Shown here piece after piece: positions 18,001 through 27,000 of a stretch of DNA of 64,000 nucleotides. The position numbers are program-made. This stretch comes from Candidatus Sulfomarinibacteraceae bacterium. GTDB taxonomy: Bacteria > Acidobacteriota > Thermoanaerobaculia > Thermoanaerobaculales > Sulfomarinibacteraceae. Where the stretch lies: assembly GCA_963796455.1 (NCBI GenBank), contig CAWCLO010000001.1, positions 1,056,001 through 1,120,000 on the forward strand, in the 5' to 3' direction. Position 1 is the stretch's first letter. Every line of letters starts with the position of its first letter.

Positions 18001-21000
18001 TGTCGTGACAGACTCCGGGCTGAATTCGGCGGTCGCCTGGCGAAGCGCGTCGATTGACTCAACGATGTTTTCGAGGCGTCCCGGGTTCTCGAGACCCTCG
18101 TGGAAGATGACGTGCAGCAGCGCCATCAGAAGATAAGCGTCGGTGCCGGGGCGGATGAAAAAGTGTTCATCAGCCATCCGTGCTGTCTCGGTCCGGCGCG
18201 GATCGACCACGATCAGACGCCCACCGCGTGCCTGCAACTCCTCGAGCCTCCGTTTGAAGCCCGGCGCGGTCATCATGCTGCCGTTCGACACCACCGGGTT
18301 GGCGCCCAGGATCAACAGATGGGATGTCCGATCGATATCGGGTATGGGCAGCAGCAGTTTGTGACCGAACATCAATGTGGCGGCCACATGATGAGGGAGT
18401 TGATCTACGGAGGTGGCCGAATACCGGTTGTGGGTACCGAGGCATCTGATGAGGGCCGGGGCAAAAAGCAGGGATCCCCAGTTGTGAACGTTGGGGTTTC
18501 CGAGATAGACGGCCAAAGCGTCACGACCGTGGGCTTTCTGAACCGACCGGAGACGATCCGCGACTTCATCGAGGGCCTCGTCCCAAGCGATGGGTTGCCA
18601 CCCTCCACTCTGTCGCCGCATCGGTTGGCGCAACCTCTCGGGATCCTTGTGGATATCTTGCAACGCGACCGCTTTGGGGCAGATGTGGCCGCGGCTGAAG
18701 GGATCATCCTTGTCGCCACGAATGGCGATGATTTCGCTTCCATCCACCTCGATGGCAAGGCCGCAAATGGCTTCGCAGAGGTTGCAGGCCCGAAAATGGG
18801 TTGAGATTTGTGTGCGGTCGGACATTGATCCACGGAGAATTGTATAGGGTCCCGGGCTCCGCTACAGTGCCAACGACCGCAGCGATTTGTTGACCGCCCG
18901 ACAACCACTCCGGAGGAATCCATGCGCTCATCAGCGAAATTGATCGGATCCGCACTCTTCGCAGCCCTTCTGTTGATCCCGACGTCGCTCTTGGCAATCG
19001 AGTTCGAGGTGTCGTTTCCATCCGATCTCGAGACCGGGCCTGTGGACGGCCGTTTGCTGCTCCTGATTTCGGGTTCCGCCGAGACCGAACCCAGATTTCA
19101 AGTCCGCCCTGGGGTCAACGCCATTCAAGTCTTCGGAAAAGATGTTGATGGTCTCGAGGCAGGCCATGGGGTCCGCATCGACGATGCTGTTTTTGGCTAT
19201 CCAATCGAGAGTCTCAGCGAAATTCAGCCGGGCGAATACTCGGTCCAGGCCGTGCTCCACCGGTATGAGACCTTCAATCGAGCGGATGGCCACACGGTCA
19301 AGCTCCCGATGGATCGTGGCGAAGGTCAACAGTGGAATCGTGCCCCGGGCAATCTCTACAGCACACCGCGCACGGTGACGATTGCCCCTTCGTCCGACAC
19401 GGTCCACGAAATCGAGCTCGACTCAAAAATCCCACCCATCGAGCCGCCCGCCGAGACCGCCTACGTCAAGCACATCCAGATCCAGAGCAAGCTTCTGACC
19501 CAGTTCTGGGGCCGTCCCATGTTCCTCGGCGCCCACGTTCTTCTGCCGCACGGTTTTGCCGACCACCCCGAGGCACACTATCCGCTCATGGTCTTTCACG
19601 GCCACTTCCCATACGACTTCGGAGATTTCCGCACCTCTCCTCAGGACCCCGATCTCGAGTGCGAGTATGCCGAGAGATTCCAGGTGGACTGCTACAACCG
19701 TATTCGCCAGGAGGAGGCCTATGCCTTCTACCAGAAGTGGATCAGCCCTGATTTTCCCCGATTTCTCATCATCGAGATTCAGCACGCCAACCCCTACTAC
19801 GATGATTCCTACGCCGTCAACTCGGCCAATCTCGGCCCTTACGGTGATGCCATCACCCACGAACTGATTCCCTACATCGAAGAAAAATTTCGCGGTCTCG
19901 GTGAAGGGTGGGCACGGTTCCTCTACGGCGGGTCAACCGGCGGTTGGGAGGCCCTGGCGGTCCAGGTCTTCTATCCCGACGAATACAACGGGTGTTTTGC
20001 CGCGTGCCCCGATCCCATCGATTTCAGGGCCTACGTCCAGACCGATATCTACTCCGACAGCAACGCCTATTTCGAAGAGGGGCCGTTCCGTCGACTGGAA
20101 CGACCGAGCCGCCGCAACTGGCTCGGCGAGATCTCAGCGACCATGCGCGACGACGGTCTGTGGGAGCTCGCCCTCGGTACCAAGAGCCGGTCGGGCCAAC
20201 AATTCGATATCTGGGAAGCGGTGTATTCTCCGGTGGGTGATGACGGCTACCCGAAGCGGATCTGGGACAAAAAGACCGGAGAGATCGACCACGAGGTCGC
20301 GGACCACTGGCGCGAGAATTACGATCTCCGCTACATCCTCGAACGGGACTGGGCGGTCCTCGGACCGAAGCTCGAAGGCAAGATCCACATCTTCACCGGC
20401 GACATGGACAACTACTACCTCAACAACGCGGTCTATCTCACGGAGAAATTTCTCGAAACGACCACAGATCCCCACTACGGAGGCGTCGTGGACTACGGTG
20501 ACCGCGCCGAACACTGTTGGAACGGCGACCACAAGAACGGGAACTACCTCTCGAGGCTGCGCTACAACACGATGTACCTGCCGAGGATCCTGGAGCGAAT
20601 CGAGGCAGCCGCACCCGAAGGGGCCGATCTGACAAGTTGGAGGCACTGAGAGTCGACTCGCCCGTTTCAGGGCCACGGCAAACAAGAGACCACATCTCAA
20701 TTACACGATCCGAGATGGGAAAACGGCTTTTTGAAATCAGAATTGTTGCGTCTGAGTGGTAATTTTTTCTCCAGCTGAAGGTTTTTCAAGATAGGATTGG
20801 GTGTGCACCCCAGTCAGCCGACACGGGCTTCGCTCCAGGAAGGGTGGGTCATCGCCAACCATATCCTGGTGTCCTTTCACGTTGCCTTTATCTCTTCCGT
20901 GCTTGCTCTCCCGGCAGAAGCAATTCTCAAAGCCGATGTCCTGCGTTTTATCTTCCTCAGCTGGGAAACACTGGTCTCGGCCTTGTTCATGGGGATCACA

Positions 21001-24000: not shown

Positions 24001-27000
24001 GCAAAGAATCTGCAGCCCGAGGTCAACGAACTCAACAGCCAATTGATACAGTTCATCAACGGCAGATTGTGCACGCGTCTCGCCGGTCTGTCTCGAACCA
24101 TCGTCCGCAACCTCTCGAGCGTCATCGGCAAACCGAATCTGATCGATCAACTGTGGAACGACACCATCCGCCTGGCTGAGGTGGAGATTCGGGGCAGCGC
24201 GATCGTCAACGAACTGCGGAGAAGCAGCCACCACGCGCTCGGGAAACGAACCCTCGTGCTCGCCGAGGCCTACCTCCGCTTTCTCGATACCGGCGAGATG
24301 GGTCAGTTGAATCGCCTCGGTTTCGATCATCCGGCGGCGAGCGATCTCGAGGCCAGAGAGAAACAGAAGCCGCGCGATATCGTCGAACGCGTGGTCGAGG
24401 ACCTTGGGCGGCTTCTCGGAACCTCCGAAACGGTGGCCAGAATCCAGGAATGGCAGCGATCCTACAAGGAGATCCTACTCCAGTGCCAATTCGGCAATCA
24501 GATCGAGACCGAACTCGAAACGATGATTGCCAAGGGCATTCGGGCCCGCAACCGGTGGGTGTATTTCCACCACCTGAGGATTCTCAACCAGAAAGCAGCG
24601 GACTTTTCGCGACCGGAGGCGGTGACTAAGGAATTCACCGCCCGCCTCGAGCGACTCCGCACCATGCGACCCGACGAAGCGGATTTCGACGCCGACCTGT
24701 GCGAAGCCGAGGCCCGCGAGGCCGTGGAGATCTTCACCACCGGAATCCGCGCCGCCTACCAGAACGAGCTCTTCCAGATGCTCGACGCGGTGATCGAGGC
24801 CAACGAAAAGAGCTCCCCCTACGAGACCTTCACGATGGTCCGGAGTCTGCGAATACGTTTGCAGACCATGATCCGAAACGGTGGGTTCCCATCGCAACGC
24901 TACTTCCTGCACCAACTCGATTGTCTGCTCGAGGAGATGAGCTACCTCGCCGTGAGACAGATCGCCACGGCCTATTCGGAAAAGGGGGTCGATCTCGAGC
25001 AGTGCCTGGAGATCATCCGCGTTTCGATTCTCAACCTCGAGTTTGACGGACTGGCCTCGCGTGAGTTGCACGATCTCTCGGGTCTGCTCGGCCACCCGAA
25101 TCGGAGCGACGGCGAGCTCCTCGATGTACTCAGACACGTCAGCCGCCACTACCACAAGATCCGCCAACGGGTGACCAATCCCTACGAACACATGAGTCAC
25201 CATCTCGCCCTCGACGAGGAAGACCTGCGCACCGTTCTGGCCAATATGCAGCGCTATATGCACGACCTCAACAGCGTGGTCCAATTCGCGGACATCGCCG
25301 GCGCACATATCCGGGACCAACAGACCCGAAACAAAGAAAACGGCAGCGCGCACGGCAGCGACGCTGATCTCCAATCGGTCCACGACATCATCCACATCTC
25401 GCACAAAGACCAGGTCGTCGCCGAAATGGATATCTGCTGCGAGCGGCCGAACTTGCGGGAGCGTTATGGCGGTAAGGGCAGCAGCCTGCTCTACGTCACC
25501 CAACTCAATCTTCCGACTCGGGACGGTTTCATCCTCCCAACCACAATCCCGCGCGCAGGCCTCCATCGTGGTGATACCACCTGGTTGGAAGGAGAAATCA
25601 CCAAACACCTGAAAATCCTCGAAACAGACCTTGCCGGCCAAAACGGGATCATCAAACGATTCGGCGACGAGAAGGAACCGCTGGTACTGGCGATTCGAGG
25701 CGGTTCGGTCTTCTCGATGCCCGGTATGCTCTCGACAATCGTCTTTGTCGGGATGAACGACCCCATCGCAGCGGCCCTGGCCCAGCACGGTCCATGGCGC
25801 GCCTATGATTCGTATCGCCGCTTTCTCGCCTCCTTCGGCCTGGCTTTCTGGGGCGTCGACCTCGAGACCTACAACCTGGTTGATGATGCCAAAAAGCGCC
25901 ATGGGGTCGAGTACAAAACTGATCTTTCGTGGGAAGCGATGAAAGAAATCGCCGAACGGTCAAAAACGGTGTTCAGAGATCACGGTCTATCGGGCGAACT
26001 GGACCGCATCCTGAAAGACCCGAGGCAGCAGCTGCTCGCTGCCGTGTGCGCGGTCTTTGAGTCCTGGAACAAGGAGAGAGCCCAGCGATATCGGGAGATC
26101 AAGGGCATCTCGCACTCGTGGCAGACCGCGGCCATCGTGCAGGAGATGGCTTTTGGCAACGGCCGCAACGCAGCGATCGAGGCGCCGATGGATGAAACCT
26201 TGGTGTCCCTCACGGGCGTCATTCCACGCACCACCGTCACCGAGTTCGGTCTGCGGGAGCTGTCGGGTGAATTCAAATTCTCGGCCGCCGGAGACGATCT
26301 CGTCGGCGGTGTTACATCCTCCGAGTCCTTCCATTCCATCGATGAACTCGACTCCTTGATGCCGATGCTCGGGCGCCGGCTTCGCCACGTCTCCTCGCGG
26401 CTCAGGCGATCGATGGGCACCGATCAGGAGGTCGAGTTCACCGTCGAAAACGGAGTTCTGAGCGTTCTCCAATCAAGGACCGCGGAAACCTATGCCGACC
26501 AGGCAATCGATCGTTTTGTTGAGCCCGGCGAGGCCGTCACCAGGGGACTCGGTGTACGCGGCGGTGGTTTCCGGGGGCTGGTCGCCTTCGATGATGCCGA
26601 TCGTGAAGAACTCGCGGCGATCGATTTCTCTCGCCGCGACGATGTCGACGGGGTGCTCCTCGTGTTGGAGAACCCCACTCCGGAGGAGATCCCGATGATC
26701 ATCTCCGCCGATGGGCTGCTGACCGCAAAGGGTGGATCCACCTCGCACGCCGCAGTCGCCGCCAACGGGATTGAGGACCGGAATTTCTGTTCGGTCATGA
26801 GCGCCGGCGGTCTTCGCGTCGACCTCGAAAAGCGTGAAGCCGTCATCCAGAACGCCGACGGAGAGATCCTCCACCGGATCCTCAAGGGTGATGTGCTCTC
26901 GCTGCACGGCACCTCGGGTGAGGTCTACATCGGTTCTCGCGCCCTCCGCCAGGTCGACGGCAAGGAACCGCAATCGTGAGGCTTCTTTTCGCGACGCCGC

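Follow-up and report, generated by a model that had tools for sequence, protein, structure and literature searches.

Domain architecture of the fusion protein

The analyzed window, a stretch of 64,000 nucleotides, contains a gene for a giant membrane protein, known from uncultured bacteria, that combines an enolase with ATP-grasp and phosphohistidine domains. The following features were assigned:

20803..26979, + strand: whole gene, 2058 aa, a single open frame with a GTG start
20836..20910, + strand: near-invariant, weakly hydrophobic helix (aa 12-36) with N19, H20 and H26; low model confidence
20962..21417, + strand: site-2-protease (M50)-like membrane domain (aa 54-205), from Pfam, alignment and model
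21532..22467, + strand: enolase barrel, placed first (aa 244-555), from PDB alignment and AF2 model
22504..23301, + strand: enolase capping ('N-terminal') domain, placed second (aa 568-833), with two extra helices; ends module 1
23305..23472, + strand: variable linker (aa 835-890), from the alignment of homologues
23473..23847, + strand: small helix/beta-meander (alpha/beta) part (aa 891-1015); no family found
23860..25332, + strand: helical domain (aa 1020-1510), probably a relative of the central domain of GWD/PWD, from profile comparisons
25378..26502, + strand: PPDK-type ATP-grasp domain with PPDK subdomain (aa 1526-1900), from PDB alignment and conservation
26506..26952, + strand: swivelling phosphohistidine domain (aa 1902-2050), from PDB alignment and conservation

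The open frame and the Pfam domains reported in the genome-wide survey's note were both recovered: Enolase_C at aa 261-567 (E 4.7e-46), Enolase_N at aa 744-777, PPDK_N at aa 1618-1786, PEP-utilizers at aa 1949-2015, and a weak M50 match at aa 67-218. The base composition of the gene (GC 0.60, GC3 0.73) is similar to that of its neighbours, and scans for promoters and terminators around it gave results at chance level. The homologue search reproduced the 382 relatives counted by the survey; nearly all of the best 120, which we looked at, have the same domain set. An assembly artefact or chance fusion is ruled out by these homologues, by the domain set shared among the best 120, and by the order kept in split two-gene forms. 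The enolase and the ATP/His-phosphotransfer centres are intact across the relatives, in agreement with the survey's view of a conserved, uncharacterised family. Lysobacterales and Myxococcota are also named in record titles of family members.

The domains follow each other along the chain as M50-like domain, enolase barrel, capping domain, linker, small alpha/beta part, helical domain, ATP-grasp domain and His domain. The protein is composed of two modules: (i) module 1 (aa 1-835), a site-2-protease-like zinc domain with a circularly permuted enolase, and (ii) module 2, the helical domain followed by ATP-grasp and His domains of the PPDK type. The linker is the site of an optional HD-domain insert, found in 18 of the best 120 homologues, and also the breakpoint in the two-gene split forms, where gene order is preserved. 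The region previously described as about 750 helical residues without known likeness is not one unit: it comprises the linker, the small alpha/beta part and the domain at aa 1020-1510, and for the latter the description did not hold, as this domain could be tied, by way of Omnitrophota proteins, to the central domain of glucan, water dikinases and phosphoglucan, water dikinases (GWD/PWD).

Enolase and membrane zinc domains of module 1

The permutation proposed by the survey was seen in both the PDB alignment and the AF2 model (pLDDT 85.8, pTM 0.84), where the barrel lies ahead of the capping domain. According to residue equivalences from the PDB and row alignments, the catalytic and Mg-binding enolase residues of the barrel and capping loop are invariant in 118-120 of 120 and in 99 of 99 rows; these are H268, E282, E325, D368, E426, D453, K478, H506, R507, S508 and K529 in the barrel, and the S612 loop is retained in the capping domain. 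We take their functional roles to be those of canonical enolase, with S612 and H268 presumably being the capping-loop residues that close over the substrate phosphate. The protein resembles enolases (EC 4.2.1.11; TIGR01060; PDB 9no2, 4a3r) in its catalytic and Mg-binding residues but differs from them in the reversed domain order, the membrane domain in front and the inserts. Its TIGR01060 score is 202.8 bits, below the cut-off of 300.

The membrane domain retains the zinc ligands H74, H78 and D199 and the catalytic-type E75. The HExxH motif, called invariant by the survey, is kept as H74, E75 and H78 in all 118 alignment rows covering these positions, and neither the zinc ligands nor E75 vary in any context, including genomes in which no enolase other than module 1 was found. 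M50 was matched by 65 of 70 family members at E<=1 (best 2e-7), the fusion protein itself falling below the Pfam cut-off; the ESM Atlas gave M50 at 0.92, and the domain is colinear with a site-2 protease (S2P) of the same genome. The PDB sequence profile search with the membrane part gave no match, and in structure searches with the whole of module 1 the match lists were filled by enolases. In common with site-2 proteases (M50; RseP, MjS2P, SpoIVFB), the domain has HExxH and a re-entrant beta-hairpin, and the Asp that serves as third ligand lies on a membrane helix further along the chain, separate from that of HExxH. Unlike in these proteases, the Asn and Pro of the extended LDG motif are replaced (A/G191, with an invariant D194), and an enolase stands where S2Ps have PDZ or CBS domains. 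At position 191, the place of the Asn, 99 rows have Gly in 83, Ser in 6, Thr in 6 and Ala in 4.

Putative dikinase module and its probable relationship to GWD/PWD

The invariant residues of the ATP-grasp domain (K1558, R1632, Q1780, T1804, D1832, E1878, Q1890 and R1892) are presumably those of the PPDK nucleotide site, of which K22 and R337 are named in PDB titles. H1982 of the swivel domain is invariant in 120 of 120 rows, which bears out the reported phosphohistidine motif. The chain stops after the His domain, so that the PEP/pyruvate barrel is absent, as had been claimed. Module 2 is like PPDK (pyruvate, phosphate dikinase; EC 2.7.9.1; TIGR01828; 1dik/1kbl) in its nucleotide-site residues and its swivel domain with the catalytic His, but has the helical domain, placed N-terminally, instead of the barrel. 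It also resembles VadK (Mtb Rv1127c; NF004531), a PPDK minus the barrel with a His autophosphorylation centre and a likely non-PPDK role; however, VadK consists of the ATP-binding and His domains alone, and the fusion protein, with its extra domains, scores 182.8 bits against NF004531, below the cut-off of 456.

Profile comparisons linked the helical domain via Omnitrophota proteins to the GWD/PWD central domain (96% and 96.7%). The comparison with PWD-like proteins was weak (68%), and the direct one with GWD1-like proteins did not reach significance (0.5%), its score of 21.7 lying below those of the shuffles. Among 32,486 ORFs of the same genome, the fusion gene was not in the top six for the GWD1-like HMM and ranked first for the PWD-like HMM, but only at E 0.069. 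By transitive homology, the domain would be a distant relative of the acceptor-side central domain of GWD/PWD, with which plants phosphorylate starch; this link is made by bacterial sequences, with no plant sequence or structure, 9HA9 and 9QVI included, among the library matches. The Pfam search of the fusion protein gave no match to PF22973 or PF23166 at E 0.1 and found no CBM; PDB sequence profiles of the helical part gave no match and no GWD entry, and the ESM Atlas gave none for aa 885-1540. A CHAD polyphosphate-binding domain, considered because of a likeness in motif, was not among the 25 listed of 55 Pfam families for 41 family members and was discarded.

The invariant or nearly invariant residues of the helical domain are K1068, N1069, E1073, R1102, E1126, E1137, R1139, R1140, H1143, H1144, E1377, R1484 and D1488. 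R1484, kept in 120 of 120 rows of the best homologues, was aligned in two comparisons with R904 of StGWD1, the Arg proposed to face the phospho-His, whereas the hhalign alignment with the Omnitrophota set terminates four residues out of register with the Arg. The StGWD1 positions E900 and E901 correspond to A1480 and N1481. By transitive homology, the domain would correspond to the central domain of GWD/PWD (StGWD1, 9HA9/9QVI; bacterial GWD1-/PWD-like pairs), with its roughly 20 helices and a like-ordered set of conserved His, Asp/Glu and C-terminal Arg. The differences are: (i) the order is central-ATP-His here and central-His-ATP in GWD/PWD, (ii) the ATP and His domains are of the PPDK type, (iii) a four-helix insert is present at about aa 1215-1320, (iv) a CBM is absent and the positions of E900 and E901 are not acidic, and (v) no glycogen gene was seen near the fusion gene among the neighbour ORFs scanned.

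Distribution and genomic context of the modules

Thirty genomes, 5 of them fused or split controls, were searched for stand-alone module 1, and 25 of the 30 have it without module 2. Module 1 is probably a true 2-PG/PEP enolase, because no other enolase was found in 17 of these 25 genomes; the survey's caveat that it may act on another acid is thereby weakened. The stand-alone genomes belong mostly to one clade, so that the 17 cases amount to about 3-4 independent losses. The canonical enolase and PPDK noted beside the fusion were located on contigs C8 and C5, respectively. A canonical enolase has been retained in each of the 39 fusion genomes checked and a full PPDK in 37 of them, a distribution that suggests the fusion has an accessory or regulatory role. 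One Omnitrophota genome has, 44 bp behind module 1, a gene for a dikinase that shares the helical domain but is in GWD order and has a PEP-synthase-type ATP domain; the travelling companion of the enolase would thus be the helical domain and not the PPDK barrel slot.

No recurring neighbour gene was observed for the fused forms. No glycogen gene was among the 95 of 139 picked neighbour ORFs that were scanned (trimmed to 600 aa). The presence of glycogen synthase is unrelated to that of module 2: it was found in 32 of 39 genomes with the module and 24 of 25 without.

Proposed function and alternative models

From the domains, conserved residues, module independence and transitive homology, we infer the activities, swivel target, acceptor and any coupling as follows. 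The protein would be a membrane-tethered two-enzyme assembly of an enolase and a GWD-type dikinase with separate active sites, a model to which we give an even chance. Module 1 would be a working enolase (2-PG to PEP) on the zinc-binding site-2-protease-like domain. The ATP-grasp domain would load H1982 from ATP, yielding AMP and, by analogy with PPDK, PPi; the His domain would then swivel to the helical domain, where R1484 would face the phospho-His. The acceptor most likely binds the helical domain and not the enolase site, because module 2 brings its own GWD/PWD-related acceptor-type domain. Candidate acceptors are a glucan, a small molecule or a protein; the phosphate would most likely pass to a hydroxyl of a sugar or alpha-glucan, and the optional HD domain may take it off again. 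Alongside canonical enolase and PPDK, the fusion would set phosphorylation beside a read-out of lower-glycolysis flux. The non-significant GWD1-like comparison, the HMM results, the four-residue offset of the Arg, A1480/N1481, the missing CBM, the lack of glycogen context and the small number of independent losses count against this model, and so does the invariant zinc site, which nothing in it explains.

Alternatively, the protein may be a signalling device, which we regard as possible but rather unlikely. The enolase would be a trigger enzyme and, by closing its loops on 2-PG/PEP, would gate the site-2 protease; module 2 would be a VadK-like His kinase sensing ATP, AMP or PPi, passing phosphate to a protein or acting by binding, with HD as the eraser. 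The zinc ligands and E75 invariant in all contexts, the colinearity with the S2P and the ESM Atlas match are consistent with this, as are the retained canonical enzymes and the permutation, which puts the H268 loop directly after the membrane domain. Furthermore, S2Ps bear regulatory CBS or PDZ domains (PMC10202637), and VadK, a PPDK that lacks the barrel, is reported to autophosphorylate and to bind metabolic enzymes (PMC13400623). On the other hand, the Asn with which the extended LDG motif binds substrate (N389 in RseP) is G/A/S/T here, no substrate gene, anti-sigma factor or regulator recurs among the neighbour ORFs, and a GWD-type domain favours a hydroxyl acceptor over a protein.

We consider improbable a channelled route: glycerate or a similar small acid would bind to the helical domain and be phosphorylated by module 2 to 2-phosphoglycerate, with ATP going to AMP, and the fused enolase would then yield PEP. 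Consecutive steps would fit modules fused or adjacent in two different dikinase architectures; moreover, a small anion might be bound by the invariant Arg/His/Glu cluster at aa 1068-1144, and the domain lacks the GWD glutamates. Against this route, the domain's known relatives have a wide groove and work on polymers, and no glycerate-pathway gene recurs among the 95 of 139 picked neighbour ORFs that were scanned. An ordinary kinase achieves glycerate phosphorylation more cheaply. Very improbable is the survey's interpretation, in which the enolase site replaces the PEP/pyruvate barrel of PPDK and 2-PG gives PEP, then phospho-His and then ATP within one polypeptide. In its favour, PPDK takes up the product of enolase, the two centres are both intact and the PPDK-type ATP domain is reversible in principle; but the replacement is not supported, given the independence of module 1 in 25 of 30 genomes, the acceptor-type domain of module 2, the kept capping loops (S612 and H268 invariant), the PPDK in 37 of 39 fusion genomes and the Omnitrophota pair.

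The protease-like zinc site, being invariant, suggests that an enzyme acting as a sensor links glycolysis to membrane proteolysis. It is conceivable, though unlikely, that the protein is a membrane hub: depending on whether 2-PG or PEP occupies it, a moonlighting permuted enolase would gate an intramembrane zinc protease, and the chimeric dikinase (GWD/PWD acceptor domain joined to ATP and His domains of PPDK) and HD phosphohydrolase would write and erase phosphate on a stored glucan or a partner. Such a hub would tie glycolytic flux to the phosphorylation of glucan and to regulated proteolysis, and the starch-dikinase acceptor domain would be an old mobile bacterial module.

The helical domain would mean that the central domain of GWD/PWD also occurs in a new type of dikinase architecture, in which H1143, R1484 and H1982 are the residues of interest. 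According to a 2026 review, whether and how prokaryotes phosphorylate glycogen is still open (PMC13666283); the fusion family and the bacterial GWD/PWD pairs make this testable. We found no description of the family in the literature searched, where most subscription journals were beyond reach. If able to replace normal enolase, the permuted membrane-bound version would give this near-universal enzyme a second form, so far hidden behind the label 'enolase'. One Omnitrophota preprint names enolase solely as a canonical gene.

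Gene, domains and relatives

The fusion is encoded by one feature of the window:

20803-26979, + strand, fusion gene, a single frame of 2058 codons with a GTG start

Its base use resembles that of the host, the domains listed in the genome-wide survey's note were recovered with Pfam and NCBIfam, and predicted hydrophobic helices are confined to aa 16-195. A whole-length query returned 382 relatives; the best 120 of these, a set that takes in the window's own protein, have identities of 50-75% and in most cases lengths of 2020-2360 aa. Residue counts over these 120 revealed that (i) H74, E75, H78, D194, and D199 are kept in all 118 rows covering these positions, (ii) the enolase residues are kept in 118-120 of 120 rows, and (iii) K1558, R1632, Q1780, E1878, Q1890, R1892, and H1982 are kept in 120/120. 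By these counts the enolase and ATP/His centres are intact, as the note had held. The fusion protein family is real.

The closest named relatives of the fusion are Acidobacteriota (Thermoanaerobaculia). Its distribution is patchy: the gene was found in 7 of the 24 other genomes of the genus and in none of 36 further relatives (0/36); the window's genome is 90.5% complete. A canonical enolase and a PPDK, both reported in the note, are encoded in the same genome besides the fusion. In a close relative (L004:9395-15576), the fusion gene is split over three overlapping frames by frameshifts or sequencing errors.

Two separable modules

Module 1 (aa 1-835) comprises the membrane domain and the permuted enolase; module 2 comprises the helical, ATP-grasp, and His domains. 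A survey of 80 genome loci, the best 80 of 154, revealed module 1 (i) fused as in the window, (ii) as the leading gene of an adjacent pair, (iii) standing alone (850-880 aa) in WOR-3, Stahlbacteria, and one Dehalococcoidia, and (iv) embedded in giant Omnitrophota proteins. In 25 genomes chosen because module 2 is missing at the module 1 locus, the helical part of module 2 had no match anywhere, and 24 of them held only a PPDK-length match to this module. In a FastTree phylogeny of 84 module 1 copies, a stand-alone clade has 22 members (support 100) and a fused clade 55 (support 99); the Omnitrophota copies belong to neither. AF2 models of module 1 (pLDDT 85.8, pTM 0.84) and module 2 (pLDDT 85.9, pTM 0.82) are confident. 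At the module junction, 18 of the 120 listed homologues carry an inserted HD domain of ~270 aa, called by Pfam in 4 of 20 homologues scanned, with its His/Asp ligands kept in 18/18. The best mechanism, to which we give an even chance, would be a membrane-tethered two-enzyme assembly with separate active sites.

All individual parts of the fusion belong to known kinds; what is undescribed is their arrangement, both in the permuted, membrane-bound enolase and in the PPDK/GWD chimera. Literature searches found no description of an enolase/dikinase fusion family, and the accessible part of an Omnitrophota preprint (10.64898/2026.06.07.730766) treats giant multi-enzyme proteins and not module 1.

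Several module 1 loci have further features. Giant Omnitrophota frames of 3,214 to 68,606 codons hold module 1 (L133:4439-16060, - strand; L136; L134; L132; L071); it is present twice in L133 and L136, and the L071 frame also contains Glu-dehydrogenase and UDPGP domains. In protein P0190 (1233 aa), Pfam places the barrel at aa 598-893 and also reports an Enolase_N match at aa 70-129, which may be a canonical N-domain ahead of module 1. At 16 loci (L043:12064-13731 and 15 others), stand-alone module 1 is followed, immediately or after a few kb, by the gene of an M48 (HtpX-like) protease that carries a zinc ribbon, an arrangement that may reflect shared descent only.

Membrane domain

ESM Atlas groups aa 1-246 with site-2 proteases (0.92). 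Pfam M50 is matched by 65 of 70 family members at E<=1 (best 2e-7); the match of the window copy is under the Pfam cut-off. When the domain was aligned with a site-2 protease encoded by the window's genome, three elements kept their order, namely the HExxH helix, G147-P148, and D199, the last being paired with the Asp of the LDG motif; the probability of this alignment is only 16% (E 0.0016). The accessible parts of PMC10202637 and PMC4597795 describe HExxH and LDG as the catalytic core of site-2 proteases and an Asn upstream in the LDG region as substrate-binding. The window family has Gly, Ala, Ser, or Thr at the Asn position. The putative zinc site is selected for in every context.

Helical domain and its proposed relation to glucan dikinases

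A profile of aa 885-1510 gave 97 matches among 1.84 billion proteins, and six of those outside the family and its fragments scored E 2e-7 to 1e-4; the helical stretch, in which the note saw no known likeness, thus has relatives. In three of the six, a PPDK ATP domain follows the helical part, and a fourth is a fragment. The other two, P0387 and P0388 (Omnitrophota, going by one name), follow the domain order of GWD, in which the helical part comes first, then a GWD-type His domain, and then ATP-grasp; P0387 retrieves the window gene in a reciprocal search (E 3e-9). Two further GWD-order proteins came from 301 Omnitrophota genomes. With these two included, the Omnitrophota set was matched to the window family by hhalign at 96% over 351 columns (score 75.6, compared with 20 for the reversed control and <=29 in 15 block-shuffles). 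One of the two added dikinases lies 44 bp after a module 1 gene (genome G300); the genome of the other gave no module 1 match. Both proteins of the G300 tandem (L122:479-9795) start with a similar N-terminal region of ~400 aa, secreted in appearance, and another frame of G300, 54,392 codons long, includes a starch-synthase domain.

We retrieved 27 bacterial PF22973 loci (8/401 and 9/401 genomes in the two phyla sampled). The spacing of E900, E901, R904, R923, W931, and H992 of StGWD1 (PMC13553574) is kept in all 16 strong bacterial proteins usable for this comparison. CBM45-type domains occur at both PF22973 loci read in context, one of which lies within a glgC-glgP-glgB-glgA cluster. GWD1-like genes are paired with a second, PWD-like paralogue at L137-L163, L164:404-19185, and L165:6443-14832; the second paralogue has a xylose-isomerase-like barrel at its N-terminus, and ten such PWD-like paralogues were compared with the window family. 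The Omnitrophota central domains match the bacterial GWD set at 96.7% over 355 columns, and the window family matches the ten PWD-like paralogues at 68% (score 47, compared with <=28 shuffled). The latter match aligns R1484 with their Arg, as does MAFFT, and one hhalign run finishes four residues off this register. Because direct comparison of the window family with the GWD1-like set gave no match (0.5%), the link of the family to GWD is transitive and of moderate strength.

Other features of the window

Further features observed in the window are:

1964-3451, + strand, 495-aa protein containing a GTPase domain (Ras/Arf/Rag-like), neighboured by hrcA and a LysM transglycosylase gene
5699-7813, + strand, 704-aa protein with GreA/GreB domains solely at its C-terminal end
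14753-20649, upstream of the fusion gene, acyl-CoA ligase, molybdopterin oxidoreductase, and esterase
27228-27290, pyrimidine-rich tandem repeat (unit ~7 bases) between downstream genes
27883-33394, - strand, bacterial alpha-2-macroglobulin gene divided between two frames that overlap (968 and 917 aa)
39808-41514, + strand, HAD hydrolase fused with AIR-synthase-like domains

The split of the alpha-2-macroglobulin gene suggests a frameshift or assembly error. Synteny of the upstream block is limited to close relatives (L004, L006).
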